A DNA stretch of 32,000 nucleotides, taken from NCBI GenBank assembly GCA_965224465.1, contig OZ245049.1, positions 2,130,001-2,162,000 on the forward strand, written 5' to 3'. Both the position numbers and the translations under genes were made by a program. This stretch comes from Flavobacteriaceae bacterium (lineage in GTDB: Bacteria > Bacteroidota > Bacteroidia > Flavobacteriales > Flavobacteriaceae). Of this stretch, positions 3,556 through 29,610 are shown in pieces; position 1 is the stretch's first letter; each line of letters opens with the position of its first letter. Under the pieces are notes generated by a model, which ran no database searches, was not told where the DNA came from, and worked only from the letters and a program-made list of their open reading frames with translations.

Positions 3556-5058
3556 TTATTTATCAACAGGCTTCCAATTTTGAGGCAGTAACTCCGAAAG
3601 TTTATTAGCCTTATGTTCTGGTAATCTATTAAGGACATCACATAGCCACGTATGTGGGTTTACGTTATTCTTTTTGCAAGTAGCAAAAAAGCTATAAAAT
3701 AGAGCTATGTTTTGTGCGGACTCATGACTGCCAGCAAAGAGATAATTTTTTCTGCCAATAGCTAAAGGTCTTATGGCATTTTCTATATTATTGTTGTCTA
3801 TTTCAAACCTGCCATCATCGATGTATAGTTTTAGGTTTTGCCATATTTTAAGAGTATAAGCAATTGCTTTTCCTATGGCACTTTTAGGCAGTACGTTTTT
3901 TCGCTCTTTTGTAAGATAAATTTCTATTCCGTCTAAAACAGGTGATGCATGTTTTTCTCTATATGCTTTAGTTTGCTCAATAGTTAATTCTTGTTCTTTT
4001 ATTTTACGTTCTATCTTGTATAGCTTTTGAATTTCCAACAAAACAACATCCGCTCTTTTAGGATCATTATCCAGCGCCTTCTCAAAATACCGCCTAGCAT
4101 GAGCCATGCAACCTAAAAGAGTAATTTCTCCTTTTGTTGTTAAGTTTTGGTATGCAGCATACCCATCGGACTGTAGTGTCCCATTGAAATCTTTAAAAAA
4201 CTCTTCTGGAACAACTTTTCCTCTCCCTTTATTGTATTCAAAAAGAACTAAATTTTTAACAGGATTTCGATACACCCACATATACCCTCTGTGTGTTGAT
4301 TTTTTCTTGTCTTTATCTAAAACCTTTATAGGAGATTCGTCTGCTTGAATATAATTGGCATTTTCTAAAAACTGAGCCTTAAATGTATCGTATAAAGGAG
4401 CGATAAGCTCCGAACTTTTAGATACCCATCCTCCAATTGTTGATTTACTTACTTTTAAATCTTGTCGTTTAAAAATTTGAATTAATCTGTAAAGTGGTAA
4501 ATGGTCTACAAATTTTGAAATAAGTATAAAGGCCAATAAACTTGCTGATGCATTTCCTTTAGGTATCGGTAAGCTTGGTAATTCTGCTATAACAACGCCT
4601 TTTTCTTCCGGAAGTGCATATTTAGGTCTTACAATTCGTCTTACAAAAACGGAAAGAGGCGTTATTTCTAAAAGTTCTGTAACTTCTTCTCCTATTTTTA
4701 CAGCTCCTTCTTCTATGTGCTTAGGCTCTATAATCTCTTCTACTCGCGGAAAATGCGCAGGTATAGAAGAGCGAACAGGTTTTTTCTTTCCTTTCTTCTT
4801 TTGTTTTCTTTCGTAGATTACAATATGTTTTTTGTATGCCTCTTCTTTCTCAGCTATTATTTTTCCGAAAAGCGACAATTGATTTGTGTCAACAGGGATA
4901 AAACGTTCGCTTTTAGACCCGAAAACCATTCTTTTAAGCTGCTCGTATTGCTGCTTAATTTCAGCTAGTTCTTGAGCTGTTTTTTCAAGTTCAATCTTTA
5001 AAATTACCAGCTCTTTTTGTATGTCTATTGTATTGTTTTCCACACTATAAATATACAA
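3556..5058 (-). CDS. IS66 family transposase (TnpC)
   Basis: 500 aa. N-terminal coiled-coil/leucine-zipper region and a DDE core typical of IS66 (PLYRL, GYMWVY, LQSDGYAAY, GCMAHARRYF, ENAIRPLAIGRKNYLFAGS). Confidence 0.9.
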   Translation of the reverse strand: MYIYSVENNTIDIQKELVILKIELEKTAQELAEIKQQYEQLKRMVFGSKSERFIPVDTNQLSLFGKIIAEKEEAYKKHIVIYERKQKKKGKKKPVRSSIPAHFPRVEEIIEPKHIEEGAVKIGEEVTELLEITPLSVFVRRIVRPKYALPEEKGVVIAELPSLPIPKGNASASLLAFILISKFVDHLPLYRLIQIFKRQDLKVSKSTIGGWVSKSSELIAPLYDTFKAQFLENANYIQADESPIKVLDKDKKKSTHRGYMWVYRNPVKNLVLFEYNKGRGKVVPEEFFKDFNGTLQSDGYAAYQNLTTKGEITLLGCMAHARRYFEKALDNDPKRADVVLLEIQKLYKIERKIKEQELTIEQTKAYREKHASPVLDGIEIYLTKERKNVLPKSAIGKAIAYTLKIWQNLKLYIDDGRFEIDNNNIENAIRPLAIGRKNYLFAGSHESAQNIALFYSFFATCKKNNVNPHTWLCDVLNRLPEHKANKLSELLPQNWKPVDK

Positions 5059-5101
5059 AAAACAAGACTAAATAGCAGGTAAAACCTACAGTTTTATTGA
5101 A

Positions 5102-5455
5102 TTATTTAGCCTCTAAATAACGTTCGTTTTTCTGAGTATTTATAATACTAATTCCGTCTAAAACCATAACCATTTGGGTATAACTCAAAACTACTAATCC
5201 ATCTTCAATGTCGTATTTTGGAAGCTCAAAAATACCTCGTTCCAATCGTTTATAATACAGTACAAATCCTCCAGGTCGCCAATGAAGAAGTTTTAGTTTA
5301 TTTTTTTGCTTATTGATAAATGCATAAACACTATTTCTATCTCGCTCTTGTTCCATGTGCTCACTAACTAATCCACTTAATCCATTAAATCCTTTTCGCA
5401 TATCAACTGCAGATAAGTGATAATAATACGTGTGTTCTGTACCTAATCCTAACAT
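5102..5455 (-). CDS. IS66 Orf2 (TnpB) accessory protein
   Basis: 117 aa with VDMRKGFNGL ... KLLHWRPGGFVLYYKRLERGIF, the hallmark of IS66 TnpB. Sits directly upstream of the transposase. Confidence 0.85.
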   Translation of the reverse strand: MLGLGTEHTYYYHLSAVDMRKGFNGLSGLVSEHMEQERDRNSVYAFINKQKNKLKLLHWRPGGFVLYYKRLERGIFELPKYDIEDGLVVLSYTQMVMVLDGISIINTQKNERYLEAK

Positions 5456-5676: not shown

Positions 5677-5778
5677 GGAATTATTGACACCAGAAATCAT
5701 ATTCACATTCTTATCATAAGAAGTATCACCCCCTGTATTTGTCCGTCTTTAAAGCCGTAGGTTTTGCCTTTTCTTTTT

Positions 5779-7486: not shown

Positions 7487-8059
7487 TGAATTTCTTAAAA
7501 GAAAATCAAAAGTCTCAAAGTAAGGTAAACTCCAATTTGGTCTATAGTCAAGAAAGCTACCTCCATCATATTCTTTATCATCTAAAGAATAGTAATACCA
7601 GTAATCATCAGATTTAAACCGATATTCAGGTTCATATCGTTTTGTGTATATTAAATAATGTATTGTAGGTGTTTTTTTAAAAAAAAGAAAAACTCGATTT
7701 ACACTAAATTCATATAAGTTATTATTATACGTAGTTTCTGTATAATAGAACCCTTTTTTTATTAAATATTTTGAAATTGAAATTATATCACTATCATTTG
7801 TGATTTTTTCAATTTCAGTTAGGTTAATGCGACAATAATTATCAGTTTTTAATTTGTTTACACGATCATAATTTTTAATAGAAAATGATTTAATTTTATC
7901 TAAATATCCTGTGTTATAGACTTCGGTATATATTTCACCATATTGATGTCTATTCTGATACACTTTATCGAATTTTATTTTTTTGTATTGAACATATATA
8001 CCTAAAAAAAACAAAGCAGATAACAGTGTAACGATTGTATTTTTCTTATTAATTTTCAT
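7457..8059 (-). CDS. membrane-anchored immunity candidate for the 426-aa effector; 3' end replaced by the IS256 insertion
   Basis: N-terminal TM helix (IVTLLSALFFLGIYV). The start overlaps the effector stop (TAATG). The last 10 codons (GTVNSTLSE + stop, 7457-7486) are IS256 sequence. Reading across the TSD restores the original tail ...FLLRNSSYTLKK*. Confidence 0.6.
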   Translation of the reverse strand: MKINKKNTIVTLLSALFFLGIYVQYKKIKFDKVYQNRHQYGEIYTEVYNTGYLDKIKSFSIKNYDRVNKLKTDNYCRINLTEIEKITNDSDIISISKYLIKKGFYYTETTYNNNLYEFSVNRVFLFFKKTPTIHYLIYTKRYEPEYRFKSDDYWYYYSLDDKEYDGGSFLDYRPNWSLPYFETFDFLLRNSGTVNSTLSE

Positions 8060-9339
8060 TAATCTTTATTTATTTCTATTTCATTGGTAGTCAAGTTACC
8101 GTTAAAACTATATATAATTGGAACATAAGTTATAAAAGGCTTATATCCTCTTAAATGCTGAAGTATATACCAACAAATAAATTCTTCATTCTTTCTTATA
8201 TAATCTTTTAAAATATCTCCAGAATCTAAACCAAAATGGTCAGATATTTCTAATCTAAATTTTCCTTTATAAGAATTGTTATCAAAATAAAATTCAGTTA
8301 GAGATATATCATAAGCTTGTGTTCCATCAATTGAAACACCAAGACCACCAAATTTATCTGGGTATTTAAGGCTGTTAAGTTCCTGTAAACCTTTAATCCC
8401 TAAAACATCAGGATTACCTCCGGATTTTTTTTCATACTCTTTTCTTAAAAATTGATTTTTAGTGTTTTTAACCTTTAAATTAAATATGCTATTAGTATTT
8501 TCTTTTATTGCATTTTTCAATAACGGAGAAAAACCATTTATAAAATCTTTTGTTCTTTGATGATCTGAAACAGCATTTGTTAATCTAATATCTTGGTATT
8601 TGCTGCTTGTATCAATGTTTTTCTTAAAGTAATCAATCATGCTATGTAAATTGTCATCTAGTACTCCTAGTGCCCAATCATCGAGGTCATACTTAAGAAT
8701 CTCAAATAATTTATCATTTGAATATTCACTATATTCTTTAATAACATCCATTGCATAATTAACTCTTGAGTCTTTATCCACAACATCAACACTCTTACCT
8801 ATGTCGTCAAACCCTTTTTCTAAAGCAGTCTTTAATCTCGTTTTCTCTTTTGGATAGTCAATACCCAAGTTTTTTATATCTTGTCTAGTGCAGTTTTTTC
8901 CATTAGTATCATAACAAACACCCGCTCTTTTAACAGAGCGAGCAATTATCATTGGTAAATTAAGTATATTTACTTCTACAAAAACATCCTTATGAGGTAG
9001 GCCCCCTGCATAAGCGTATATCTTAAATTTTTCTTTCGGTTTCTCCGTTTTTATCTTAACTTTTAGTGTATCACCGTCTAGTTCTCCTCCCGAAAAAAGC
9101 TTATACGATTTACAATGGTCATCTTTATCATAGGAGATAGCCCAGTTAATTTTTTTGGGATTGACATTATTATTTCTTAAAGTAGCAACATAAATGTACT
9201 CTTTTTCTTTTTCTATATATTCTAACTTATTGTTAACTGTGTCAAAAGGCCCTTCTACTTTAACAACTACTCTTACAACCTTAGGCAGTTTAATCGTAGT
9301 TTTAGTATTTGGATACCCTTTTATTATTACTGTTGCCAT
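8059..9339 (-). CDS. T6SS-type effector: shared N-terminal 128-aa module plus DUF3289-like C-terminal toxin domain
   Basis: 426 aa. The N-terminal ~128 aa are almost identical to ORF 19287..19952. The C-terminal DHFGLD ... WYILQHLRGYKPF motif is shared with ORF 18559..19197. The start lies 2 nt after the ext2 stop. Confidence 0.65.
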   Translation of the reverse strand: MATVIIKGYPNTKTTIKLPKVVRVVVKVEGPFDTVNNKLEYIEKEKEYIYVATLRNNNVNPKKINWAISYDKDDHCKSYKLFSGGELDGDTLKVKIKTEKPKEKFKIYAYAGGLPHKDVFVEVNILNLPMIIARSVKRAGVCYDTNGKNCTRQDIKNLGIDYPKEKTRLKTALEKGFDDIGKSVDVVDKDSRVNYAMDVIKEYSEYSNDKLFEILKYDLDDWALGVLDDNLHSMIDYFKKNIDTSSKYQDIRLTNAVSDHQRTKDFINGFSPLLKNAIKENTNSIFNLKVKNTKNQFLRKEYEKKSGGNPDVLGIKGLQELNSLKYPDKFGGLGVSIDGTQAYDISLTEFYFDNNSYKGKFRLEISDHFGLDSGDILKDYIRKNEEFICWYILQHLRGYKPFITYVPIIYSFNGNLTTNEIEINKD

Positions 9340-9341
9340 AA

Positions 9342-9848
9342 TTAATTTTCTTGTAAAATTGCTTTTAATGGGATGGATTCAATATCGTTAGTGATTTGAA
9401 CTTCTAACGTATCGTTTTCTAGTTTTATTCCATTATGTTCATAATCTAATTTCTGATCATCTAAGTTAAACTTAAACGTTTTCCCCACAGCGTTGCTACT
9501 TTCTATTACGAGCATAATTTCTTCATCAACATCAATATCATTTTTTTCAAGTTCATTCCCCTCTAAATCTTCTATATGATATTTATTGATCTCTGGTTCA
9601 TCATTTAAAACTGTTGGTTCAACAGTATCTTCCTTAAAAGTTTCTCTCCAAGAGGCAGAATACACACCAAACGAGTTAGAATCTTCTACACCAGCACAGG
9701 TAATTTCTAAAGTTTCCGTCATTGGATCTGAGCCTGTAGAAGAAAAATTGGTTTTCCAATTTACAAGATGACAGTCATAGAAAAATATTTTTCTTGTTTT
9801 CCCTCCCAGAATAAATATTGCTTTTAATGGAGTCGTTACATTTATCTG
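9342..9848 (-). pseudogene. tssD: 5'-truncated tssD (from about codon 72) fused to C-terminal extension type 2
   Basis: The frame reads ...ILGGKTRKIFFYDCHLVNWKTNFSSTGSDPMTETLEITCAGVEDSNSFGVYSASWRETFKEDTVEPTVL, as in the full hcp genes, then a different 84-aa tail. It is open upstream to 9848. No start codon before the internal ATG at 9722 (track ORF 9342..9722). Confidence 0.75.
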
Positions 9849-10534
9849 TCAAATATAATATCTCCAAATAAATTAATTTCAAACTCTTTTTTAATAGAAA
9901 ACAACAAGTTAAACTCATTTGTTTTCTTGTTGTATTTTCTAACAAAATAAGTGTTGTTTTTTACTGTTTTTAAAAATTTTACATTTTTTAATTCATCTAT
10001 TCTATGATTGGTTTCTTTCCATGTTTTTCCATAATCACTAGAGTAATAAGTAACGTTTTTATCAAAGTCATAACATTCTAAAATTCCACTATTGATTGAA
10101 AGAGATTCATTTGAAAGGTTTCTATTAAAAGGTAAAATTTTCTCTATGTTTTTTTTGCTCCAATTACTACCATTATCAGTACTTATATATAAATATTGAG
10201 GAGACGTATCACCATCTGAATTCTTTTTAGAAACAAAAGAGATTGTTTCTTTAATTGTACCTAAGCCATCAAAGATATTTTCATATTCATTGAGGTTAAA
10301 CATTTTTATACTCCATGTTTTTCCTGCGTCATTTGAGATAAATAAATAAGGATTTATTGTTGTGAAAATAATTAAATCACCTTTTTCAATAACACCAGAC
10401 ATTCCTTGTATTTCATATATCTTACTAATAGCATAGTTATTCCATTCATATCTAAACAATCCATATATAAAAATACAGATAAGTATAATTACCATGGTTA
10501 CTATCGTAATTACCATTTTATATCTATTTTTCAT
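9842..10534 (-). CDS. membrane-anchored BNR/Asp-box repeat protein (immunity candidate for the NodB effector)
   Basis: N-terminal TM helix. Three SxDxGxTW-type Asp boxes (SNDAGKTWS, STDNGSNWS, SSDYGKTWK). The start is 1 nt after the deacetylase stop. Confidence 0.6.
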   Translation of the reverse strand: MKNRYKMVITIVTMVIILICIFIYGLFRYEWNNYAISKIYEIQGMSGVIEKGDLIIFTTINPYLFISNDAGKTWSIKMFNLNEYENIFDGLGTIKETISFVSKKNSDGDTSPQYLYISTDNGSNWSKKNIEKILPFNRNLSNESLSINSGILECYDFDKNVTYYSSDYGKTWKETNHRIDELKNVKFLKTVKNNTYFVRKYNKKTNEFNLLFSIKKEFEINLFGDIIFDR

Positions 10535-11315
10535 TTTAATAGTTACTTATAACATCAAAGTTATAGTTTTTCTTTTTAAGTTTTTTTATGAGTGCTTTTA
10601 GTTTGTCAGCTTCATTATTTCTAAAAGCTCTATCATGCATTAATAAAACAATTTTATTTTGTTTTTGAGAATTATCATATTCGAACCACCAGTGAGATGA
10701 AACATCTTCAATTTTATCAAAAACATCATCTGGTGAATCAGTAAGTTTATCAAAATCTTTGTATTCGTCAGAATAAAAATCTATAAAAGGATGCATTTCT
10801 GATTCATTACTCCAATTTAATGTATTGTTTGCTGCTTTTGTTTTAACTTGCTTAACTGCTTCATCATGTGCCTCAAAAGACATACTCCATTCTGTGTCCC
10901 ATCCATAAATAACATACTCTTTTTGGTGTAATAAATCGGCTTCGTCTAATGTATCCATATTGTTATCACTATCAGTAATTTGTATTTTAGGGTATCGCCA
11001 AGTGTTTCGCCCAGGGAATCTTGCTAATTTAATCTGATTACCTCCTAATAATTTATCAGTTTTTCTAAAATCTTCAAGAACACTTCTTCGTTCAAATGTC
11101 CCATCAGGTTTCTTACCTATTTTTAATCCCTCATTATAATAGTGTTTATAGAAATCATTTGCGTGGGAATAACTGTGATTAGCAATTTCATGATTTTCTT
11201 TTATTTCATTCAAAAGGGTTTCCTTTTCATCATTGCCGTAATGTATTCCATAATTAACAATATTGATGCCTGTTAAGAAAAACGTAGCTCTCACTCCTGT
11301 TTCTTTTAATACTTT

Positions 11316-12583
11316 GGTTCTACCACGATTTGTGTGGGTATAAATCTAAACCTCCATTAAAAAACAGTATTGCACTTCTAAAATTCACGAAAGTCCTGTA
11401 GCCTTTACCAATAGATTTTATTTCTTGTATTTTACCATTTAGTCTTTCTGCCATTGCATTAGAAGCAGTCTCAACCATTGCATTACACACCCCTTCTATA
11501 TGGTTATTAAACATCCTAGCAACCTTTATAATTTCTTTAATTTTTGTTTCCAAAACACTTGCTCCCCATTTGATAAAAAGACCTAAAGCAACTTTCAAGG
11601 ATGGACTTCTAAATATATTTTTAAAATTTTCTTTAGCTAACCATGCTTTACTTGCTTGATAATTTGCTTCTTGTATTTTGTCAAATAATACTCTTTGTTT
11701 ATCCGTTAAGTTTTCTTTATTTTTAAGCAATACAAATCTACTATTTTTAAGACCTTCTTCTTTTTTCACTTCACGTCTGCGAACTTTATCTATAGCATCA
11801 TTTAAGTACTTTACTAAGTGAAATCGATCATGGACAACTTTCGCTTTTGGAAAAACTTCTTTTACTGACGATAAATAGGCCTTCCACATGTCAATAGAGA
11901 CAGTCTCTACTTCATCTCTATTTATCTCATTTACAATCTTTTCAAGTAAAATTTTAGTCTCTTTTTTAGTCCTACCTTCTGCAACATCAATTACAATTCC
12001 TGTACTCGGATCACTAACTACAGTCACATAGTTATGCCCCTTTTTGAAAGCTTTTTCATCTATACTTAGATGAGAAAATCTTTGGTTTTCTGACCTATTA
12101 GAAAGCCCTCTTTTTACAGAAGTATGTATGATTCGGTTTACAATATTAAAGCCACAACGTAATAGTTTAGCCGTTTGAGTTTGATTTCTTGTTGCTTTCA
12201 ATAAGTCTATAGTTAGCCTTTCAAATAGGTAAGTATGACGATAAAAATTACTAGCCCATGGTACCGTTATCGTTTTAACGCCTTTAGTTGACTTAACTCT
12301 TGGGACTTTACAATTAATGTAGGTTTTGAATTGTAAGGTGTCTAAATGACGCCATCTACGAGTACTTCTATGATCATAAATACTACACAACTCTTCTGTG
12401 TCTGGACAAGATGCTCTTGTTGGTAGATAGTCTATAAATATGTCTATTTCTGAATCTAGATAATTAACTTTTACATCACAAACCTTCCAATCTGTTCCTA
12501 AATTTAATAGTAACTCAAACAGTTTTGTTGAAAACATCTTTTTGAGGTAAAGATACTAATTCCACAACATTCGTGGTAGAACC
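11316..12583 (-). mobile_element. ISL3-family insertion sequence (1268 bp) with 8-bp TSD
   Basis: IRs GGTTCTACCACGATTTGTGTGG and (reverse complement) GGTTCTACCACGAATGTTGTGG. TSD AATACTTT at 11308-11315 and 12584-12591. Confidence 0.9.
11320..12537 (-). CDS. ISL3 family transposase
   Basis: 405 aa. Has an RRWRHLDT zinc-finger-proximal region, SIDEKAFKKGHNYVTVV, SIDMWKAY, HDRFHLVKYL and MAERLNGKIQEIK motifs, as in ISL3 transposases. Confidence 0.9.
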   Translation of the reverse strand: MFSTKLFELLLNLGTDWKVCDVKVNYLDSEIDIFIDYLPTRASCPDTEELCSIYDHRSTRRWRHLDTLQFKTYINCKVPRVKSTKGVKTITVPWASNFYRHTYLFERLTIDLLKATRNQTQTAKLLRCGFNIVNRIIHTSVKRGLSNRSENQRFSHLSIDEKAFKKGHNYVTVVSDPSTGIVIDVAEGRTKKETKILLEKIVNEINRDEVETVSIDMWKAYLSSVKEVFPKAKVVHDRFHLVKYLNDAIDKVRRREVKKEEGLKNSRFVLLKNKENLTDKQRVLFDKIQEANYQASKAWLAKENFKNIFRSPSLKVALGLFIKWGASVLETKIKEIIKVARMFNNHIEGVCNAMVETASNAMAERLNGKIQEIKSIGKGYRTFVNFRSAILFFNGGLDLYPHKSW

Positions 12584-12722
12584 AATACTTTTAATATTTC
12601 CTTTGTTCCTGGCTGAATTCCATCATCAAATGTAAGAAAAACAGTTTTTTTCTTAGACACCTTAGGCAGTTTAATCGTAGTTTTAGTATTTGGATACCCT
12701 TTTATTATTACTGTTGCCATAA

Positions 12723-12998
12723 TTAATTTTCTTGTAAAATTGCTTTTAATGGAATGGATTCAATATCGTTAGTGATCTGAACTTCTAACGTATCGTTTTC
12801 TAGTTTTATTCCATTATGTTCATAATCTAATTTCTGATCATCTAAGTTAAATTTAAACGTTTTCCCCACAGCGTTGCTACTTTCTATTACGAGCATAATT
12901 TCTTCATCAACATCAATATCATTTTTTTCAAGTTCATTCCCCTCTAAATCTTCTATATGATATTTATTGATCTCTGGTTCATCATTTAAAACTGTTGG
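12723..12998 (-). pseudogene. orphan extension-2 fragment (no hcp core, no start codon)
   Basis: Frame PTVLNDEPEINKYHIEDLEG...IPLKAILQEN*, preceded directly by an in-frame TGA (12999-13001). Near-identical to 9342..9617 and 19955..20230. Confidence 0.75.
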
Positions 12999-13090
12999 TC
13001 ATAATTACTCAGCTTTCAGTGCAACAAGACGATAAAATTAGTCGAAGCCCACGAACCTACGTAATTTCAATCGCTAGGTATTAGGCAACG
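12999..13090. repeat. inter-cassette element S, copy 1
   Basis: 92 nt, by eye identical to 20231..20322. Contains the imperfect inverted repeat CGATTGAAATTA / TAATTTTATCG (read on the - strand). Diverged relatives at about 5955-6043 and 24095-24175. Confidence 0.6.
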
Positions 13091-13663
13091 TTATAATATT
13101 CCTAATTTTTTTTTAAATTCTTCTGTTATGTAGTGTTCTAGTTCATCGAAAGTAAAGAATACTTCATATAATGAAAAATCATTATCAGAGTCTCTTAAAT
13201 TTTCCACTAACCCATTCGTGAATTTTATTCCTAATACTTTTTTTTGATTTTTAGTGATAATCCATGGCACTGGAATTTCACTAATGGTAAACTCATCAGG
13301 GTATTCTTTATTTATTCTTTTTTGAATTGTATTTACAAGTTTATTATCTGTATTATTAAAGAAATCTTTAATTGTTATCAATTCTGAATTATCAATATTA
13401 AAATTATATATGTAAGAATATCCTGTTAGATATGCTGTATATGTTTCGATGTCTAATTGAATACTAACAATATGCTTATTAAGGAAATGAATTGCATAAT
13501 TACTATTATTAAATGAATAGCAATTATTTGAACAACATTTAGTATTCAAATAATCAGTAAAATTATTAATGGTCTTTTTTAAACTAATTGAATCAATTAT
13601 GTTTGCTTTATTAATAAAGACAAACTCTTCAACTTCCTTTTTTATAATATAATTAAGAATATC

Positions 13664-15078
13664 GGTTGTGTAATTTAAACTCTGTCTGCTTGTTTTTTTC
13701 TACGTTTTAAAATAGTTCGATTTTCTCTTCATAAGGCTGCTTTAAAAATCGAACTATTTTAAAATGAGCCCCAGCGGCTAGCGTCACGAATTGCTTCCGT
13801 TTTTATGTAAATCCAACGTTATTCGATCTTCAAATTTAATATATAATTGTTGAATTGTCAAGCACCAATTATGTAAAGGGTTTGTCCATTTTTTTTCGAT
13901 ATTTTTTGTTGCTAAGTAAACAAGCTTTAATAGTGCCATATCACTGGTAAAAGCCCCTTTTGTTTTAGTTACTTTTCTTACCTGTCTATGAAAACCTTCT
14001 ACTGCATTTGTTGTGTAAATTATTTTTCTGATAGGTTCTGTATACTGAAAAAACTGAGATAACTCTTCCCAATTACGGTTCCAACTTTCTAAAACTACAG
14101 GGTGTTTTTCTCCCCATTTTTCTTCTAATTTCAATAACTCCAACTCAGCAATATCCTTATTAACAGCCTTGTAAACAAGCTTTAAATCTCGAATAAATTC
14201 TTTTTGGTCTTTGGAAGCTATATACTTTAAAGAATTACGAATTTGATGAACAATACACTTTTGAATTTGTGTTTTAGGAAATACACTCAAGATAGCTTCT
14301 GAAAACCCTTTTAAGTTGTCTGTACAGGCAATTAGGATATCCTTAAGCCCTCTGTTATTAAGGTCTGTCAATACTTGAAGCCAAAAATTTGCGCCTTCAC
14401 TTTCTGAAATATACATTCCTAAAACCTCTTTGATCCCTTCTTTATTTACTCCTAAAACATTGTAAAGTGCTTTGTGTTGTATTTTACCGTCTACTTTTAC
14501 CTTGTAATGCATAGCGTCAAGCCAAACAATGCAGTACATCTGTTCTATTGGACGACTTTGCCATTGTTTTATATCTGGTATGATCTTATCTGTAATTTGA
14601 CTTAAAACAGTGTGTGATATATCTGTATCATACATCTCTTTTATATGACCAGAAATATCGCGTAAGCTCATTCCTAGGCCGTATAATCCAATGATCTTAT
14701 CTGATAAATTATCTGCTAAAATGGTTTGACGCTTTTTTATCAGAACAGGCTCGAAACTACTATTTCTATCCGCTGGCGTGCTTATTTCAAAACTACCAAT
14801 ACTAGTTTTAACAGTCTTTTTGCCCTTTCCATTACGTTTATTCCCTTTAGAACGTTCCTCTTCACTAAGGTGTGATTCCATTTCTGCTTCCAATGCTTTC
14901 TCAAGAAATTGTTTCATTAAAGGAGCAAAGGCACCTTCTTTTCCGAATAAACTTTTTCCTGATAATAATTGATCCAATGCCTTTTTTTCAATGTTGGCTA
15001 ACTCGTCTTTTGTCATGTTTTCTGTTTGAATAAAGTTAATACTTTTTTTTATTCAGACAGAGTTGAGTTTACAGTCCC
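13664..15078 (-). mobile_element. IS256-family insertion sequence, copy 2 (1415 bp) with 8-bp TSD
   Basis: Same ends as copy 1. TSD AGAATATC at 13656-13663 and 15079-15086. The intact paralog has a single AGAATATC at about 20888-20895. Confidence 0.95.
13784..15016 (-). CDS. IS256 family transposase (copy 2)
   Basis: 410 aa. Differs from copy 1 at two residues (C55R, Y304H). Confidence 0.95.
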   Translation of the reverse strand: MTKDELANIEKKALDQLLSGKSLFGKEGAFAPLMKQFLEKALEAEMESHLSEEERSKGNKRNGKGKKTVKTSIGSFEISTPADRNSSFEPVLIKKRQTILADNLSDKIIGLYGLGMSLRDISGHIKEMYDTDISHTVLSQITDKIIPDIKQWQSRPIEQMYCIVWLDAMHYKVKVDGKIQHKALYNVLGVNKEGIKEVLGMYISESEGANFWLQVLTDLNNRGLKDILIACTDNLKGFSEAILSVFPKTQIQKCIVHQIRNSLKYIASKDQKEFIRDLKLVYKAVNKDIAELELLKLEEKWGEKHPVVLESWNRNWEELSQFFQYTEPIRKIIYTTNAVEGFHRQVRKVTKTKGAFTSDMALLKLVYLATKNIEKKWTNPLHNWCLTIQQLYIKFEDRITLDLHKNGSNS

Positions 15079-15284
15079 AGAATATCAGATGATTTTTTTG
15101 AATCAAAATTAAAAAACGGAAGATTATAATTACTGAGGATTTCTCCATCACATACTATTGTATCTTTTATAGAACTAACTACAATTTTTGTTTTATTAGT
15201 AGTATTAATTTGACTTTTACAAGAAGTGGTCAATAATACTACTAGCAGAAAAATAATATAATTATTTATCTTTTTCATCTTCGT

Positions 15285-16559
15285 TTATTTTAGTTGTATT
15301 GGTTTTAATTTTAAATCTGAAGTAATTTCAAAAGGGATAACATTAATACCTTTGACGGTTGTTTTAATAGGATTTTGTTTGCGTAATTCTTTTAATAGGA
15401 TTTCTGCTTTTGGGTCTTTTAAATTTACAGTTACTGTTTTTCCTTTCACTTTAGTTTTAACCAATATATCTTTTGAAATAGCTAACAAGATATTTTCAAT
15501 TTCATCTTTTTGCTCTTTTGTTCCAGTCTTATGAATCTCTTTGTAATGTTTGTAAACTTTAAAAGCTTCATCGTCTTTTGCTTTTAATGTATAATCTTTT
15601 CTTTCTTCTATACCATTGGTTCCTCCATTAATTCTTTTGGACACTTTTTTTATACTATCTTTATTGGAATATTCATAAACCTTTCCATTGCCAATCATCC
15701 AATACCAAAGTGCAGATTGAGTAGCATAGATTGGATTTGCTTTGTCTTCTATTTTTTTTGAGTTTATAGCTTTAGTGAAATCTAAATTTACTGAAGCATC
15801 ATTAGAAAAAGGATGTTTTTTTCTGTAATCAGAAAAAATAGTGTAATTATTCTTTCCTGTTAATTGAATGATACCTCTACCTAGAAAATTGTAACCATCA
15901 TCACCTCCATTATGTCCCAAGTCTTTTCTGTTTGAATATTTCCTATTGGCTATTTCTTTTTCATTGTGAGAATGAGATAATACTTGAACATAAATAGTTT
16001 TCTCTTCGTTAAGGTAAATTTTTTCTTGATATTTCTTTTTTTTAGTATAACCATAAATATATGCTGGATTTAGCTTATCACAATTAGCATATTTATCTTT
16101 TTTATCTTTATCCTTTTTTTTATCAGCTTCTTTTCTGTTATCTATAATTTTGAATTTATCTTTATATGTCTTAATATTAGCGTCAGTAAGTTTTATTAGT
16201 TCGCTCTCTGTATAGTATTTCTTAAGACTAGATGGCTTATAAGCCATATCTTCTTTTAGAGTATAAAACTTTTTACTTTCAACTAGACATTGAGAAATAA
16301 AATGAGCTTTACGTAAGCAAGTATCTAGTTTATAAGTTTTTCTGTAGTCATTGAGGTACTTTATGATTTTTTTTGCTAAAATTTCGTTTACATTAGGTTC
16401 AATGTGTTTTATTTGCTCTATTGTTATTTCTTCTTTGCAGTAAGGGCAAGGTTCTGTTTTTTTTATGGTAAGAGGTGTTTCTTTGTACGGAAGTAACTCA
16501 CCGTTGTAATATACCCTTGGTATATAAGTTATTGTTTTAAGCTTTTTCTTTTCAGCCAT
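15285..16559 (-). CDS. GH19/COG3179-type (chitinase/lysozyme-like) peptidoglycan hydrolase effector, copy 1
   Basis: 424 aa. Pattern ITIEQIKHI-P-...LNDYRKTYKLDT-LRKAHFISQCLVESKKF...YSNRKDLGHNGGDDGYNFLGRGIIQLTGKNNY...ATQSALWYWM...RINGGTNGIEERK matches the phage/T6SS GH19-like lysozyme family. The start is 4 nt after the hcp stop. Confidence 0.75.
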   Translation of the reverse strand: MAEKKKLKTITYIPRVYYNGELLPYKETPLTIKKTEPCPYCKEEITIEQIKHIEPNVNEILAKKIIKYLNDYRKTYKLDTCLRKAHFISQCLVESKKFYTLKEDMAYKPSSLKKYYTESELIKLTDANIKTYKDKFKIIDNRKEADKKKDKDKKDKYANCDKLNPAYIYGYTKKKKYQEKIYLNEEKTIYVQVLSHSHNEKEIANRKYSNRKDLGHNGGDDGYNFLGRGIIQLTGKNNYTIFSDYRKKHPFSNDASVNLDFTKAINSKKIEDKANPIYATQSALWYWMIGNGKVYEYSNKDSIKKVSKRINGGTNGIEERKDYTLKAKDDEAFKVYKHYKEIHKTGTKEQKDEIENILLAISKDILVKTKVKGKTVTVNLKDPKAEILLKELRKQNPIKTTVKGINVIPFEITSDLKLKPIQLK

Positions 16560-16563
16560 GATT

Positions 16564-17232
16564 TTATTGTTTTAAAATTACTTCTCCATTTTCGTTAACG
16601 ATTCCTTTAAGTTCTATATTGTTTGTAGGATCATCATCTGCATCTTCTAATATTATTTTTAGTTCTTCACCTTCTTCTATATCTTTTACTTTTAAAAACA
16701 GTTGAGAATTAGAACTAATTTCAGCTTCTTTTATAGAGTTACCTTCTTCGTCTTTCCATTCTGTTTTTAGGATTTTAGGATTTTTTTCAATTTCTTGCTC
16801 TCTCTCTAATACTGTTGGTTCAACAGTATCTTCTTTAAAAGTTTCTCTCCAAGAGGCAGAATACACACCAAACGAGTTAGAATCTTCTACACCAGCACAG
16901 GTAATTTCTAAAGTTTCCGTCATTGGATCTGAGCCTGTAGAAGAAAAATTGGTTTTCCAATTTACAAGATGACAGTCATAGAAAAATATTTTTCTTGTTT
17001 TCCCTCCCACAATAACGGAATTAATATGTAATACTAGCTGTTTTGTTTGCCTGGAGGAAAAAGACCATTCCGTAAGATTTATGTCTTTTCTAGTTTCTAT
17101 AATTAGTTTAAAACCTAGAAATATAGGTGTCTGTGAGGGTCTGCCGTTAGGGTTTGCTCCTTGATTAAATCTGATCGTAAACAATAGTGCGTTTACTTCT
17201 TTTCCATCTATTATTAATGTTGCTTTTACCAT
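16564..17232 (-). CDS. tssD: T6SS-iii tube protein TssD (Hcp) with ~85-aa C-terminal extension type 1, copy 1
   Basis: 222 aa. Residues 1-~135 follow the Bacteroidetes TssD pattern (KATLIIDGKE, GRPSQ, IIETRKD, DPMTETLEI, SASW). The acidic beta-rich tail is not found in canonical ~130-aa TssD. Confidence 0.75.
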   Translation of the reverse strand: MVKATLIIDGKEVNALLFTIRFNQGANPNGRPSQTPIFLGFKLIIETRKDINLTEWSFSSRQTKQLVLHINSVIVGGKTRKIFFYDCHLVNWKTNFSSTGSDPMTETLEITCAGVEDSNSFGVYSASWRETFKEDTVEPTVLEREQEIEKNPKILKTEWKDEEGNSIKEAEISSNSQLFLKVKDIEEGEELKIILEDADDDPTNNIELKGIVNENGEVILKQ

Positions 17233-17294
17233 CGTTATTTTTTTCGTTTTAGGAAGGTGTTTTTAATGTTGCCAATAACCAGTGTCCAACATTG

Positions 17295-17302
17295 CAAAGC
17301 TA
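17295..17302 (-). promoter_or_regulatory. candidate -7 promoter box TAGCTTTG upstream of hcp copy 1
   Basis: TAnnTTTG match on the - strand about 55 nt upstream of the ATG. The same box is conserved at 23103-23110 and 25427-25434. Confidence 0.45.
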
Positions 17303-18116: not shown

Positions 18117-18578
18117 TTATTTTTCGTTTAAAGTAATTGTATCTTTAATGTTTTCAGGGTAGGTTAAATACCAAATATTAGGGTTACTTTCGGATCTTAA
18201 ATAACTTAAAGTCTCCCAATAGTCTTCTTCGCATCTTTCAATTATACTTTCAACATTTTTGAGATGTTTATAGTTCGCAAAATATCCTCTTGTGCAAGAG
18301 TTGTTTTCGAAAAACACAAAACCTAGTTCATTCACAGTAGTATTTGCAACAAGTATTTCTTTTATTCTTTTTCTTGCAAAAAATAAAAGAATAGAATCAT
18401 TATCTGTAGAGCTATAAGATAAACTATTTATTAAATAGGTCTCATAGATTGCTCCATTAGTTTGTTTTTCAGATAATATCTTTTTAGCATTAAAACTGTT
18501 ATCACAACTTATTAGAATAGTCATTAAGAAAAAAAAGCCTATTCTAATAATTATATTTTTATATTTTGTTTCTCTCAT
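18117..18578 (-). CDS. lipoprotein immunity candidate for the frameshifted DUF3289-like effector
   Basis: 153 aa. Signal peptide plus lipobox (MTILISC). The start overlaps the effector 3' end by 20 nt. Confidence 0.6.
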   Translation of the reverse strand: MRETKYKNIIIRIGFFFLMTILISCDNSFNAKKILSEKQTNGAIYETYLINSLSYSSTDNDSILLFFARKRIKEILVANTTVNELGFVFFENNSCTRGYFANYKHLKNVESIIERCEEDYWETLSYLRSESNPNIWYLTYPENIKDTITLNEK

Positions 18579-19952
18579 ATTTACCTTTATTTAGATTACC
18601 AGTAAATTTTTTTGTAAATTTTATATGAGTAATAAATGGTTTATAGCCTCTTAAATGTTGTAGTGTAAACCATGAAGAAAAAATGACTCTAGCACCTTTA
18701 AATAAGTTAAAGTATTTTTCTAAATCAGATTTATCTAATCCAAAGTGATCCCATAAAGTTACATCATACTTTATGTTGTATATATTATTTTCTAATTTAT
18801 ATTCTGTAACCTCAACTTTAGTAGCCCAAATATCATTTAATGCAATCCTTTGTCCTGCCAGTAAGTCTTCAAAAGAATCAAATTGTGGACGCATAAAGAA
18901 AATTTCTTTTCTTGTTGTTTTACTTATCTGAGTAGTTGTTTTTCCTTTTTTCCTACGATTTTTCAAATTGCTTGTTCCCATAAAGTCAATTTCATTTTCA
19001 ATTAGTCCTGACAGTTTCCCTTTGCTGTTTTTTAGTTTTTCAGCAATATAATCTTCTACTTCTTTGCAATAAGTAAGAGTAGATTGATGGTTTTTAATTG
19101 CATTTGTAAGTATATTAGATCGATAAACTCCTCCCTTATTTCTTTTAAATTTGGAAATCATATCTTTTATGTTAATTTCTAATTTCCCTTCAGCCATTAA
19201 GAGTACAACACCTTTTTCAAATTTTACGAAAAGCTCATTATCTGTGTAATTTTCGTTAAGATGTTTTATCTCTTCTCCAGCAGTATCTACAATAAGTTCT
19301 CAACTTTTAAGTACCATGGTACATTTTTGTAATCTATTTTATATATCTCTTCTTTACTATATAATGTTTTATCATATTTATCATCTTTATTGCTTAATGT
19401 AGAAGTAAAAAAAGTATTTGAAATATAATCTTTTTTTAGTTTATTTATAAAGTTATCAGGGTAAACTCTTCTAACTATATTTTCACCCTTTCCATATGTT
19501 AGGTCCTCTGCTATATCTGTTCCCTCATTATTTAATCCAGGCATCCTGAACATATCTATACAAATTGGTAAATTAAGTATATTTACTTCTACAAAAACAT
19601 CCTTATGAGGTAGGTTCCCTGCATAAGCGTATATCTTAAATTTTTCTTTCGGTTTCTCCGTTTTTATCTTAACTTTTAATGTATCACCGTCTAGTTCTCC
19701 TCCCGAAAAAAGCTTATACGATTTACAATGGTCATCTTTATCATAGGAGATAGCCCAGTTAATTTTTTTGGGATTGACATTATTATTTCTTAAAGTAGCA
19801 ACATAAATGTACTCTTTTTCTTTTTCTATATATTCTAACTTATTGTTAACTGTGTCAAAAGGCCCTTCTACTTTAACAACTACTCTTACAACCTTAGGCA
19901 GTTTAATCGTAGTTTTAGTATTTGGATACCCTTTTATTATTACTGTTGCCAT
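18559..19952 (-). pseudogene. DUF3289-like effector paralog split by a frameshift (track ORFs 19287..19952 and 18559..19197)
   Basis: The upstream ORF ends at TAG 19287-19289. The downstream frame is already open from 19299, 34 codons before its ATG. One indel within 19290-19299 would fuse them into a ~460-aa protein built like the 426-aa paralog. Confidence 0.7.
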
Positions 19953-19954: not shown

Positions 19955-20230
19955 TTAATTTTCTTGTAAAATTGCTTTTAATGGGATGGATTCAATATCG
20001 TTAGTGATTTGAACTTCTAACGTATCGTTTTCTAGTTTTATTCCATTATGTTCATAATCTAATTTCTGATCATCTAAGTTAAACTTAAACGTTTTCCCCA
20101 CAGCGTTGCTACTTTCTATTACGAGCATAATTTCTTCATCAACATCAATATCATTTTTTTCAAGTTCATTCCCCTCTAAATCTTCTATATGATATTTATT
20201 GATCTCTGGTTCATCATTTAAAACTGTTGG
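19955..20230 (-). pseudogene. orphan extension-2 fragment (no hcp core, no start codon), second copy
   Basis: Same breakpoint as 12723..12998: an in-frame TGA at 20231-20233 immediately precedes CCA ACA GTT. Confidence 0.75.
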
Positions 20231-20322: not shown

Positions 20323-21087
20323 TTATAATATTCCTAATTTTTTTTTAAATTCTTCTGTTATGTAGTGTTCTAGTTCATCGAAAGTAAAGAATACTTCATA
20401 TAATGAAAAATCATTATCAGAGTCTCTTAAATTTTCCACTAACCCATTCGTGAATTTTATTCCTAATACTTTTTTTTGATTTTTAGTGATAATCCATGGC
20501 ACTGGAATTTCACTAATAGTAAACTCATCAGGGTATTCTTTATTTATTCTTTTTTGAATTGTATTTACAAGTTTATTATCTGTATTATTAAAGAAATCTT
20601 TAATTGTTATCAATTCTGAATTATCAATATTAAAATTATATATGTAAGAATATCCTGTTAGATATGCTGTATATGTTTCGATGTCTAATTGAATACTAAC
20701 AATATGCTTATTAAGGAAATGAATTGCATAATTACTATTATTAAATGAATAGCAATTATTTGAACAACATTTAGTATTCAAATAATTAGTAAAATTATTA
20801 ATGGTCTTTTTTAAACTAATTGAATCAATTATGTTTGCTTTATTAATAAAGACAAACTCTTCAACTTCCTTTTTTATAATATAATTAAGAATATCAGATG
20901 ATTTTTTTGAATCAAAATTAAAAAACGGAAGATTATAATTACTGAGGATTTCTCCATCACATACTATTGTATCTTTTATAGAACTAACTACAATTTTTGT
21001 TTTATTAGTAGTATTAATTTGACTTTTACAAGAAGTGGTCAATAATACTACTAGCAGAAAAATAATATAATTATTTATCTTTTTCAT
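20323..21087 (-). CDS. lipoprotein immunity protein for the GH19-like effector (intact copy); possibly RsiV/DUF3298-like
   Basis: 254 aa. Signal peptide plus lipobox (LLTTSC). Sits 6 nt downstream of the effector. The central ETYTAYLTGYSYIYNFNIDNSELITIKDFF resembles the DUF3298 core; this is a low-certainty, by-eye call. Confidence 0.7.
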   Translation of the reverse strand: MKKINNYIIFLLVVLLTTSCKSQINTTNKTKIVVSSIKDTIVCDGEILSNYNLPFFNFDSKKSSDILNYIIKKEVEEFVFINKANIIDSISLKKTINNFTNYLNTKCCSNNCYSFNNSNYAIHFLNKHIVSIQLDIETYTAYLTGYSYIYNFNIDNSELITIKDFFNNTDNKLVNTIQKRINKEYPDEFTISEIPVPWIITKNQKKVLGIKFTNGLVENLRDSDNDFSLYEVFFTFDELEHYITEEFKKKLGIL

Positions 21088-21093: not shown

Positions 21094-22368
21094 TTATTTT
21101 AGTTGTATTGGTTTTAATTTTAAATCTGAAGTAATTTCAAAAGGGATAACATTAATACCTTTGACGGTTGTTTTAATAGGATTTTGTTTGCGTAATTCTT
21201 TTAATAGGATTTCTGCTTTTGGGTCTTTTAAATTTACAGTTACTGTTTTTCCTTTCACTTTAGTTTTAACCAATATATCTTTTGAAATAGCTAACAAGAT
21301 ATTTTCAATTTCATCTTTTTGCTCTTTTGTTCCAGTCTTATGAATCTCTTTGTAATGTTTGTAAACTTTAAAAGCTTCATCGTCTTTTGCTTTTAATGTA
21401 TAATCTTTTCTTTCTTCTATACCATTGGTTCCTCCATTAATTCTTTTGGACACTTTTTTTATACTATCTTTATTGGAATATTCATAAACCTTTCCATTGC
21501 CAATCATCCAATACCAAAGTGCAGATTGAGTAGCATAGATTGGATTTGTTTTGTCTTCTATTTTTTTTGAGTTTATAGCTTTAGTGAAATCTAAATTTAC
21601 TGAAGCATCATTAGAAAAAGGATGTTTTTTTCTGTAATCAGAAAAAATAGTGTAATTATTCTTTCCTGTTAATTGAATGATACCTCTACCTAGAAAATTG
21701 TAACCATCATCACCTCCATTATGTCCCAAGTCTTTTCTGTTTGAATATTTCCTATTGGCTATTTCTTTTTCATTGTGAGAATGAGATAATACTTGAACAT
21801 AAATAGTTTTCTCTTCGTTAAGGTAAATTTTTTCTTGATATTTCTTTTTTTTAGTATAACCATAAATATATGCTGGATTTAGCTTATCACAATTAGCATA
21901 TTTATCTTTTTTATCTTTATCCTTTTTTTTATCAGCTTCTTTTCTGTTATCTATAATTTTGAATTTATCTTTATATGTCTTAATATTAGCGTCAGTAAGT
22001 TTTATTAGTTCGCTCTCTGTATAGTATTTCTTAAGACTAGATGGCTTATAAGCCATATCTTCTTTTAGAGTATAAAACTTTTTACTTTCAACTAAACATT
22101 GAGAAATAAAATGAGCTTTACGTAAGCAAGTATCTAGTTTATAAATTTTTCTGTATTCATTGAGGTACTTTATGATTTTTTTCGCTAAAGTTTCGTTTAC
22201 ATTAGGTTCAATGTGTTTTATTTGCTCTATTGTTATTTCTTCTTTGCAGTAAGGGCAAGGTTCTGTTTTTTTTATGGTAAGAGGTGTTTCTTTGTACGGA
22301 AGTAACTCACCGTTGTAATATACCCTTGGTATATAAGTTATTGTTTTAAGCTTTTTCTTTTCAGCCAT
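21094..22368 (-). CDS. GH19/COG3179-type peptidoglycan hydrolase effector, copy 2
   Basis: 424 aa. Four aa differences from copy 1 (I60T, D71E, T75I, A274T). Confidence 0.75.
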   Translation of the reverse strand: MAEKKKLKTITYIPRVYYNGELLPYKETPLTIKKTEPCPYCKEEITIEQIKHIEPNVNETLAKKIIKYLNEYRKIYKLDTCLRKAHFISQCLVESKKFYTLKEDMAYKPSSLKKYYTESELIKLTDANIKTYKDKFKIIDNRKEADKKKDKDKKDKYANCDKLNPAYIYGYTKKKKYQEKIYLNEEKTIYVQVLSHSHNEKEIANRKYSNRKDLGHNGGDDGYNFLGRGIIQLTGKNNYTIFSDYRKKHPFSNDASVNLDFTKAINSKKIEDKTNPIYATQSALWYWMIGNGKVYEYSNKDSIKKVSKRINGGTNGIEERKDYTLKAKDDEAFKVYKHYKEIHKTGTKEQKDEIENILLAISKDILVKTKVKGKTVTVNLKDPKAEILLKELRKQNPIKTTVKGINVIPFEITSDLKLKPIQLK

Positions 22369-22372: not shown

Positions 22373-23041
22373 TTATTGTTTTAAAATTACTTCTCCATTT
22401 TCGTTAACGATTCCTTTAAGTTCTATATTGTTTGTAGGATCATCATCTGCATCTTCTAATATTATTTTTAGTTCTTCACCTTCTTCTATATCTTTTACTT
22501 TTAAAAACAGTTGAGAATTAGAACTAATTTCAGCTTCTTTTATAGAGTTACCTTCTTCATCTTTCCATTCTGTTTTTAGGATTTTAGGATTTTTTTCAAT
22601 TTCTTGCTCTCTCTCTAATACTGTTGGCTCAACAGTATCTTCCTTAAAAGTTTCTCTCCAAGAGGCAGAATACACACCAAACGAGTTAGAATCTTCTACA
22701 CCAGCACAGGTAATTTCTAAAGTTTCCGTCATTGGATCTGAGCCTGTAGAAGAAAAATTGGTTTTCCAATTTACAAGATGACAGTCATAGAAAAATATTT
22801 TTCTTGTTTTCCCTCCCAGAATAACGGAATTAATATGTAATATTAGCTGTTTTGTTTGCCTGCAGGAAAAAGACCATTCCGTAAGGTTTATGTCTTTTCT
22901 AGTTTCTATAATTAATTTAAACCCCAGAAATACGGGGATTTGTGAAGGTCTGCCATTAGGATTTGCTCCTTGATTAAATCTGATCGTAAACAATAGTACG
23001 TTTACTTCTTTTCCATCTATTATTAATGTTGCTTTTACCAT
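22373..23041 (-). CDS. tssD: TssD (Hcp) with C-terminal extension type 1, copy 2
   Basis: 222 aa. Six aa differences from copy 1, all within the first 75 residues. Confidence 0.75.
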   Translation of the reverse strand: MVKATLIIDGKEVNVLLFTIRFNQGANPNGRPSQIPVFLGFKLIIETRKDINLTEWSFSCRQTKQLILHINSVILGGKTRKIFFYDCHLVNWKTNFSSTGSDPMTETLEITCAGVEDSNSFGVYSASWRETFKEDTVEPTVLEREQEIEKNPKILKTEWKDEEGNSIKEAEISSNSQLFLKVKDIEEGEELKIILEDADDDPTNNIELKGIVNENGEVILKQ

Positions 23042-27130: not shown

Positions 27131-27601
27131 TTAATAAGTAAAAATTAAACTTCTATCTGTTCTTAAAATATTCCATTGCCATTTGAAAAAATTATTCATT
27201 TTATCATTCGCTTCAAAAGGATTTCTTGTGTGAACTCCTTTTTGATTGACATAATCCATGATATTATCAGTGAACCCTTTATAAAAAACATGGGGTGATT
27301 TCATGGTGCTTCTAGCTGATGTCTCTTGAAAAACATGTGTTAATGATAATGAATGTGCACCTTCATGTAATACAGTTCTTTTAGCATTTAATGCGGTGCT
27401 ATAAATAACGTAGGAGTTACCCCAAGTAATACTGGTTAAAATACCTGTTGTATTAAAATTGAACTGAGCGGAGCATGAGCCTTGAACTCTAGTACCGCTA
27501 GTTTCAGCTCTAATTGTTGTGTAAAATAAATAGGTTCGCTTATTGGCATTTGTATTTATGCCAGAAACGCTTGGAGCATGTTTGCCAAATTTTTCATACA
27601 A
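27131..27601 (-). CDS. zinc metallopeptidase toxin domain (HExxHxxxxxH) without a delivery domain or a clear start
   Basis: VLHEGAHSLSLTHVF motif. The track start is a TTG. The frame is open upstream to 27709 with no ATG. Looks like a C-terminal toxin module detached from its carrier. Confidence 0.6.
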   Translation of the reverse strand: MYEKFGKHAPSVSGINTNANKRTYLFYTTIRAETSGTRVQGSCSAQFNFNTTGILTSITWGNSYVIYSTALNAKRTVLHEGAHSLSLTHVFQETSARSTMKSPHVFYKGFTDNIMDYVNQKGVHTRNPFEANDKMNNFFKWQWNILRTDRSLIFTY

Positions 27602-29391: not shown

Positions 29392-29610
29392 TTAATAGCT
29401 CGTTATAAGACTTTCATCGTTTCTCATAATATCCCATTGCCATTTGAATAAGGAATACATTTTTCCTTTAAATTTATTATCTCCAGATGAATAATAGCCA
29501 CCACTTGGAGCACTAGCACCAATCTGCCAATCATAATCCATATAATTGTCAGTATAACCACGGTGAAATATATGAGGTGATGATATCCTTAATCTTCCTC
29601 TTGCTTCCAT
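29392..29610 (-). pseudogene. C-terminal fragment of a metallopeptidase toxin paralog
   Basis: SPHIFHRGYTDNYMDY...FKWQWDIMRNDESLITSY aligns with residues ~100-156 of ORF 27131..27601. The HExxH region upstream lies inside repeat R5 and is degenerate (LHAGYTY). Confidence 0.7.

Follow-up and report, generated by a model that had tools for sequence, protein, structure and literature searches.

In Bacteroidales, effectors need a cognate variable Hcp encoded beside them and minor Hcps form heteromers, examples being Hcp1/Hcp2-Bte1 of B. fragilis GA3 and the requirement of hcp2/3 for Bfe1 (PMC13213661, PMC13402684). The locus described here lies in a window of 32,000 nt (the whole stretch of DNA that was analysed) from a Flavobacteriaceae bacterium, and it shares this layout, with an effector gene directly downstream of a variable Hcp gene, the immunity gene next and specificity expected in the Hcp variant. 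The layout, with a spacer of 1–2 nt, was found in the window and at L001/L013, L005, L006, L011, L012 and L019. Unlike the Bacteroidales systems, the variable part is a discrete C-terminal domain of 80–87 aa on an otherwise identical core, and unrelated toxins have a discrete 21-residue effector leader in common. Neither a discrete Hcp tail nor a 21-residue leader was found described in PMC13213661 or PMC13402684. Our search found no published account in which an Hcp tail domain is paired with a leader of about 21 residues.

Like the MIX, FIX, RIX, PIX and WHIX modules, which are mostly linked to VgrG or adaptors, the leader is a conserved N-terminal module ahead of alternative C-terminal toxins with adjacent immunity genes, and no fewer than six bodies have only residues 1 to ~22 in common. 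RIX, PIX, WHIX and similar N-terminal delivery domains are proteobacterial, and the toxins of WHIX effectors include DUF3289 (PMC10435454, PMC12135965). Unlike these folded domains, which form families of their own, the leader has 21 residues, is predicted to be flexible and is linked to an Hcp tail. Pfam gave no match to the first 130 residues of the window effectors, nor to the leader proteins of L004, L005, L006 and L011.

Hcp-ET proteins of Enterobacteriaceae likewise consist of an Hcp core with a C-terminal extension of more than 60 aa, and direct TssD-Ig-lipase fusions occur among the relatives of a module found here (P0139, P0142). The extensions of the window, ext1 and ext2, are instead small beta-sandwiches without a toxin signature, the toxin being encoded by a separate downstream gene, and the whole resembles an Hcp-ET in split, non-covalent form. 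Variable C-terminal regions of VgrG select cognate effectors encoded downstream. The locus similarly pairs a structural T6SS protein, through its variable C-terminal part, with a downstream effector, although its carrier is the tube protein, not the spike, and the partner is a short linear leader. The orphan arrays of Rhs and CdiA consist of 5′-truncated tips that retain a short stretch of the core, each with an alternative toxin and its immunity gene, downstream of a full-length gene, and direct repeats could restore expression by deletion. The same traits are seen here, two tips (A and B) starting at the core/extension junction and a third copy (C) retaining 209 nt of core that are ~99% identical to the intact genes, but what has been displaced is an Hcp tail together with a separate effector gene, not the C-terminus of a giant toxin. 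The locus is a case of orphan cassette stacking in the style of Rhs/CdiA, on Hcp tails.

T6SS effectors are commonly described as having no canonical secretion signal (PMC10435454), and no N- or C-terminal determinant was found in Hcp-borne cargo of Pseudomonas (PMC8262886). From genetic linkage and modularity, we lean somewhat towards reading the 21-residue leader as a short loading tag that would be recognised by ext2. Strictly coupled to a defined Hcp tail domain, such a leader would be shorter and more portable than any T6SS loading determinant described so far. The ext2 domain and the peptide would then give a concrete, testable pair for cargo choice by the tube, and the leader would be a simple marker for new toxins in Flavobacteriia-like genomes and might serve as a tag in engineered cargo delivery.

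The repeated leader block and the state of its cassettes

All relevant genes of the locus lie on the minus strand of the window, which has a G+C content of 30.4%. From high to low coordinates, the order is Hcp-ext1, effector gene E1, immunity candidate I1, cassette A, ~880 nt of non-coding DNA, a second Hcp-ext1/E1 module with a split I1, and cassettes B and C. Cassette A runs from an ext2 fragment (19958–20218) through the DUF3289b gene (18559..19952) to a 153-aa gene, and cassette B from an ext2 fragment (12726–12986) through the NodB gene, which starts at 12720, to a 230-aa gene (9842..10534). Cassette C comprises, in order, a truncated Hcp core with ext2, the 426-aa DUF3289a gene (8059..9339), a 200-aa gene and IS256. 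The features are as follows.

19890..19952, minus: leader copy A, opening the frameshifted DUF3289b effector
12658..12720, minus: leader copy B, 21 codons (MATVIIKGYPNTKTTIKLPKV), opening the NodB effector
9277..9339, minus: leader copy C, opening the intact 426-aa DUF3289a effector
19958..20218, minus: orphan ext2 tip A, built like tip B
12726..12986, minus: orphan ext2 tip B, 87 codons, followed by a stop (12723–12725), a 2-nt spacer and the leader ATG
9345..9605, minus: ext2 copy C, on a 5′-truncated Hcp core; predicted beta-sandwich (AlphaFold2, pLDDT ~85)
9606..9814, minus: Hcp (TssD) core fragment, final ~69 codons, 98.6–99% identical to 16807–17015 and 22616–22824 in the intact Hcp-ext1 genes
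19566..19889, minus: Ig-like module of DUF3289b, ~99.5% identical in DNA to copy C (668-nt block)
8953..9276, minus: Ig-like beta-sandwich module, DUF3289a residues 22–129
18559..19565, minus: DUF3289b toxin body (PF11692, other subfamily), a pseudogene as sequenced
8059..8952, minus: DUF3289a toxin body (PF11692)
12584..12657, minus: 5′ part of the NodB body, with the TFDDG motif, ending at the ISL3 junction
10536..11307, minus: 3′ part of the NodB body; joined to the 5′ part, it gives a 302-aa PF01522 protein
18117..18578, minus: candidate DUF3289b immunity gene, 153 aa, assigned by position only
9842..10534, minus: candidate NodB immunity gene, 230 aa, which adjoins NodB also in L001 and L013
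7457..8059, minus: candidate DUF3289a immunity gene, 200 aa, assigned by position only
16564..17232, minus: intact Hcp(TssD)-ext1 copy 1 with an 80-aa ext1; same core as fragment C, other extension, E1 next
22373..23041, minus: intact Hcp(TssD)-ext1 copy 2
15285..16559, minus: E1 effector with a GH19-like endolysin domain; second copy at 21094..22368
20323..21087, minus: immunity candidate I1, intact
11316..12583, minus: ISL3-family element, 1268 bp, with a 405-aa transposase, splitting the NodB gene
13631..15086, minus: IS256-family element, splitting the I1 of cassette B; second copy at 6039–7494

The same 21 codons open three minus-strand genes (9277–9339, 12658–12720 and 19890–19952), and the peptide is MATVIIKGYPNTKTTIKLPKV in all three copies. 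Self-BLAST and a three-way alignment place these codons in a block of ~348 nt (9271–9618, 12651–12999 and 19884–20231), 98.6–99.6% identical between the copies, which holds the last 13 nt of the Hcp core, the 87-aa ext2, a TAA stop, a 2-nt spacer and the 21 codons; the identity extends to the stop codon, the spacer and synonymous sites. For the DUF3289 pair, 99.55% identity is reached over 668 nt (8951–9618 and 19564–20231). These are large exact repeats, well beyond chance. An earlier first-pass annotation of the window had described a constant 5′ segment joined to variable toxin bodies at two homology depths, and the alignments bear this out. As it had stated, the NodB gene shares only the 21 codons, splitting at LPKV/SKKK versus LPKV/VRVV, and the two DUF3289 genes split at NILNLP/MIIARS versus NILNLP/ICIDMF, after codon 129, beyond which they are unalignable. 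The coordinate at which that annotation ended the NodB stretch, 12584, is the junction of the ISL3 element.

The DUF3289 bodies pass the PF11692 gathering cutoff of 25 (63.6 and 68.4 bits), and the NodB halves score 22 and 29.3 bits against PF01522. Hcp-ext1 matches PF17642 over residues 2–116 with 82.4 bits, above the gathering score, and E1 residues ~195–330 match GH19-like endolysins.

The first-pass annotation had treated the three genes as working effectors, which does not hold: two are disrupted and all three stand behind orphan ext2 fragments. The ISL3 element, whose transposase scores 228.6 bits against PF01610 (DDE_Tnp_ISL3), interrupts the NodB gene. It is bounded by terminal inverted repeats of 22–24 nt (the 24-nt repeats are 88% complementary) and by an 8-bp target duplication, AAAGTATT, at 11308–11315 and 12584–12591. 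Excising the element in silico restores a 302-aa NodB ORF with the motifs TFDDG and HSYSH, 89% identical to P0009. The DUF3289b gene (18559..19952) is frameshifted near 19290. Tips A and B lack an Hcp core and have an in-frame TAA and TGA immediately upstream, and copy C retains only ~69 core residues, so no ext2 copy of the window belongs to a working Hcp. The system in this window is degraded, consisting of displaced, partly broken gene cassettes.

Insertion sequences are unusually dense around the effector island, with six elements per 32 kb. The two IS256 copies are 99% identical, the pieces of the split I1 lying at 15069..15278 and 13091..13549. An IS66 element (transposase and TnpB-like ORF, 3556..5455), an IS30-like element (28282..29286) and an IS21-like element (30377..31982) are also present. 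A non-coding element of ~150–400 nt occurs in five copies (5537–5942, 17269–17908, 23078–24057, 25402–26179 and 29610–29789) with 83–91% identity, mostly upstream of Hcp/effector modules, and could be a shared promoter, a 5′ leader or a mobile repeat; an Rfam search of the window, this element included, gave no match. Separately, the ORFs at 27131..27601 and 29392..29610 have a C-terminal tail in common (FKWQWNILRTDRSLIFTY and FKWQWDIMRNDESLITSY), and the longer one contains a HEGAH motif. They probably represent a further toxin family, with one copy truncated beside IS30.

The leader in other genomes and its linkage to ext2

Six or more unrelated effector bodies, in several low-GC Bacteroidota-type genomes or metagenome contigs, begin with variants of the leader, of the form M-x2-3-[IVL]-x-I-K-G-Y-[PS]-N-[TS]...[IL]-x-[LV]-P-x-V. 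NodB bodies stand behind it in L013, in P0009, the homologue that is 89% identical to the rebuilt NodB of the window and begins MASTIKIKGYPNTETTIQLPKV, and in the more distant P0056, which begins MPATVTIKGYSNTKTPIQLPKV. A degenerate DNA pattern of the leader retrieved two metagenome loci, L005, encoding a 264-aa protein that begins MGQSIQIKGYPNTKITIKLPKV, and L004, encoding a 395-aa protein that begins MAWIEIKGYPNTRMEIKLPEV. The context of ext2 homologues yielded L011 (MGQSLKIKGYSNTKTSIQLPLV on a body of at least 417 aa), L012, which matches P0151 (MGQSIQIKGYPNSKISIQVPTV and then the Ig-like module), and L006–L010 (M*QSIQIKGYPNTKISLKLPKV on a body of ~340 aa). In an all-against-all BLASTP comparison, similarity between the leader proteins was confined to residues 1 to ~22, and four of the leader-linked bodies have no Pfam match. 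The DNA pattern was too strict (P in GYPN, I at one position) and missed L006, L011 and L019, so the number of leader loci is a lower bound. Between the independent loci compared, 3–9 of 19 aligned leader codons differ only synonymously, which argues that the peptide, and not merely a DNA site, is under conservation. The leader opens several unrelated toxins in other genomes, and neither of the two findings that the first-pass annotation had named as contrary to its proposal (a single toxin type in all carriers, or a recent duplication local to this genome) was obtained. Searches with the leader DNA pattern and the ext2 profile gave 0 matches in 185,579 GTDB species-representative genomes; the ext2/leader family is rare.

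Only five clusters were recovered by an ext2 profile search of 5.8 billion proteins, and at every locus with an ext2-type cluster a leader gene begins 1–2 nt after the ext2 stop. The junction occurs three times in the window and at L001/L002/L013/L014 (ext2 84% identical to that of the window), L005 (51%), L011 (55%), L012 (54%) and L006–L010 (53%); at L019 a remnant of ~25 codons from the ext2 3′ end adjoins the leader, again with a spacer of 1–2 nt. The proposal that a constant address is set on variable toxins is thus supported and coupled to ext2, given that all ext2-type tails found directly precede a leader gene. As an N-terminal module the leader is real, conserved and portable, and it is tied to ext2. 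Three Hcp core types bear ext2, cores A and B being ~24% identical and that of L012 being a third type, which makes the extension, rather than the core, the constant partner of the leader. The Hcp-ext2 of L005 scores 76.1 bits against PF17642.

AlphaFold2 models ext2 (~85 aa) as a beta domain of six to seven strands with a pLDDT of ~85. Foldseek gave nothing significant against the PDB; the best match, a donor-strand-complemented pilin (E 0.12), was not used as evidence. In the scanned proteins, Pfam matched neither the ext1 nor the ext2 region, and NCBIfam matched neither Hcp-ext1 nor the L005 Hcp-ext2. In a single comparison, ext1 and ext2 showed weak similarity over 31 residues (E 0.004). 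E1, the GH19-like muramidase effector behind Hcp-ext1, has its own N-terminus of ~35 residues, MAEKKKLKTITYIPRVYYNGELLPYKETPLTIKK, and ext1 with this N-terminus may be a second extension/leader pair on one Hcp core.

Most of the ext2 cassettes seen are damaged, the only fully intact one being that of L005. L012 has a TAA inside the Hcp core (~967), L019 (2560–3300) combines the ext2 remnant with a frameshifted NodB gene, and L006 has a TGA at codon 2 of the leader gene (560–565; GGA in relatives), on a contig that recurs in several samples. Reassignment of TGA to Gly in L006 was rejected, the long ORFs of the contig being normal under the standard code.

These observations best fit a mechanism in which the leader acts as a separate N-terminal module of Bacteroidota-type (T6SSiii) effectors, genetically paired with ext2 on Hcp/TssD. 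Since the effector gene starts 1–2 nt after the ext2 stop, Hcp-ext2 and the effector are probably made together, by what we infer to be co-translation. The flexible leader would then dock on ext2, most simply by adding beta-strands, and this binding would tether the toxin that follows the leader, whether or not an Ig-like spacer lies between them, to a specialised Hcp for export. Six 87-aa extensions plus cargo cannot be accommodated within one Hcp ring; heteromeric rings, or rings at the tip, would be required, which we assume. The linkage of ext2 and leader could also reflect joint inheritance of one recombination block, which counts against the tag reading.

The leader could instead be a loading tag for another receptor, the Hcp lumen, VgrG or an unseen adaptor, with ext2 merely adjacent and serving another job, a reading that we regard as unlikely. 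L004 is the exception that speaks for it, its leader gene having no ext2 or Hcp within 13 kb and lying beside an integrase fragment, 1.7 kb from a divergent vgrG; in addition, a NodB protein with a similar short leader (P0025) is encoded directly after VgrG, and known Pseudomonas cargo binds the Hcp lumen (PMC8262886, PMC13323088). Against another receptor, the leader stands behind ext2 on the three Hcp cores, and the 1–2-nt ext2/leader junction is retained in all lineages. The window also contains its own control, in which the same core A with ext1 precedes E1, whose N-terminus (MAEKKKLKTITYIPRV...) is unrelated to the leader. A broader form of the tag reading is a two-part, swappable address code, in which the C-terminal beta-sandwich of an Hcp would capture a leader of ~21 residues, and ext1, ext2 and others would each have their own leader class; we put this forward tentatively, as possible and somewhat short of an even chance. 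If it is true, a signal-sequence-sized peptide would suffice to direct any protein into the T6SS, which to our knowledge is not known for any T6SS.

Module borders and cassette exchange

AlphaFold2, run on DUF3289a residues 1–134 with 20 homologues, predicts an eight-strand beta-sandwich for residues 22–126 (pLDDT above 93) and leaves leader residues 1–20 without secondary structure (pLDDT 56–69). With the 129-aa N-terminal module as query, a search of 5.8 billion proteins returned the genome's own protein only. HMMER, run in full over 1.84 billion representatives with residues 1–129, found 26 relatives, with alignments that start at query residues 22–25. Since the predicted borders and the alignment starts coincide with them, the homology breaks correspond to domain borders, and the predicted effector plan is a leader (1–21), an optional Ig-like spacer (22–129) and a toxin. 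Foldseek against the PDB gave generic Ig-like neighbours only (best E 7e-3), which were not used as evidence. The kinship with the Hcp extensions that the first-pass annotation had suggested for this module, which it counted as 128 aa, was not borne out: hhalign gave a probability of 0.3% for ext2 and the Ig module, homology was rejected, and only a predicted beta-sandwich character is common to them.

In its relatives, the Ig module is joined to DUF3289, GHSLGGWNGAHLS lipase-like, VasX_N-like, Peptidase_M91-like and other toxins, and is preceded by other short N-termini, by the PAAR-like DUF4280 or directly by the TssD core. P0139 and P0142 combine a TssD core, an Ig-like module and a lipase-like toxin in a single polypeptide, and these fusions are the covalent counterpart of the window's split arrangement. 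In P0131, the first ~70 residues look to the eye like an Hcp-extension-type domain; behind them come two Ig-like modules and then a Cys-peptidase-like toxin, similar to the body of the leader protein of L004.

L013 has a cassette collinear with the ext2-leader-NodB-immunity cassette of the window. Nucleotide identity is 85% in ext2, 80% in the leader, 89% in NodB and 86% in the immunity gene, which indicates that the leader-NodB junction is ancestral. Within the genome, the ext2-leader block is ~99% identical between cassettes with different toxins, which points to recent duplication or gene conversion ending at module borders. A role as a recombination handle, the other function proposed in the first-pass annotation, is thus supported, the copies being ~99% identical within this genome and only 80–85% identical to the NodB cassette of L013. 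Cassettes A and B form the ends of a longer duplication, which starts upstream of Hcp-ext1 and stops 7 nt beyond the leader, in the pieces 15079–17676/20888–23484 (97.8%) and 12651–13663/19884–20895 (99.3%). Being constant where the toxin and immunity genes vary, ext2 and the leader would also provide homology for cassette exchange. Such exchange would here have produced the nested breakpoints at module borders, the ~99% homogenised copies and the orphan cassettes stacked behind two Hcp-ext1 modules. We infer further that deletion between the 209-nt core repeats (9606–9814 and 16807–17015) could rebuild an Hcp-ext2-DUF3289a operon and so switch the cassette in use.

Much of this would also be expected if the shared block were a recombination handle or duplication scar and nothing more, its peptide having no role in secretion. 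The near-identity of the window copies down to stop, spacer and synonymous sites, the far longer duplication shared by cassettes A and B, and the likeness to orphan toxin arrays all agree with that account. It is nonetheless weakened by the leader peptide, conserved and synonymously diverged across at least seven independent loci with unrelated bodies, by the age of the leader-NodB junction, common to L013 at 80–89% nucleotide identity, and by breakpoints that match predicted domain borders, and we judge it quite improbable. That the leader is just the first strand or strands of the downstream domain, or a translation-initiation or mRNA feature, might be suspected from its short, beta-prone sequence and its place at a termination-reinitiation junction in an AT-rich genome, but this is most improbable, considering that the AlphaFold2 model leaves it unstructured and detached from the Ig module, that it is found on folds as unlike as NodB, DUF3289 and bodies without a Pfam match, that homologues of the Ig module bear other N-termini, and that its codons vary synonymously with the residues kept.

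Other delivery routes of the NodB toxin

NodB bodies also occur on other addresses, at 42–78% identity to the NodB of the window. They are fused to the PAAR-like DUF4280 in P0011 and P0021; in P0010 (L018) and P0038, an N-terminus of ~65 aa plus an Ig module replaces the leader, the P0010 gene lying directly after vgrG; and P0025 (L003), whose gene is also directly after vgrG, has a different short leader. The same toxin with varied N-termini is the pattern expected if the N-terminal parts are delivery addresses.

Across the NodB family, at least five other N-terminal address types were seen (L003, L015, L017, L018 and P0013–P0043). One further leader class, NIFxFxxKF...SPFxDWL, lies downstream of proteins of 842–1050 aa that have no Pfam or NCBIfam match. 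Other NodB leaders of ~20–25 residues are MGDTKILAIRELKDTKPVKIV, MEKRIFRIKEVDGCTDFQHVTLTIV and MMRTLKIKSVNGNTDLEIKTINV, the last encoded directly after vgrG.
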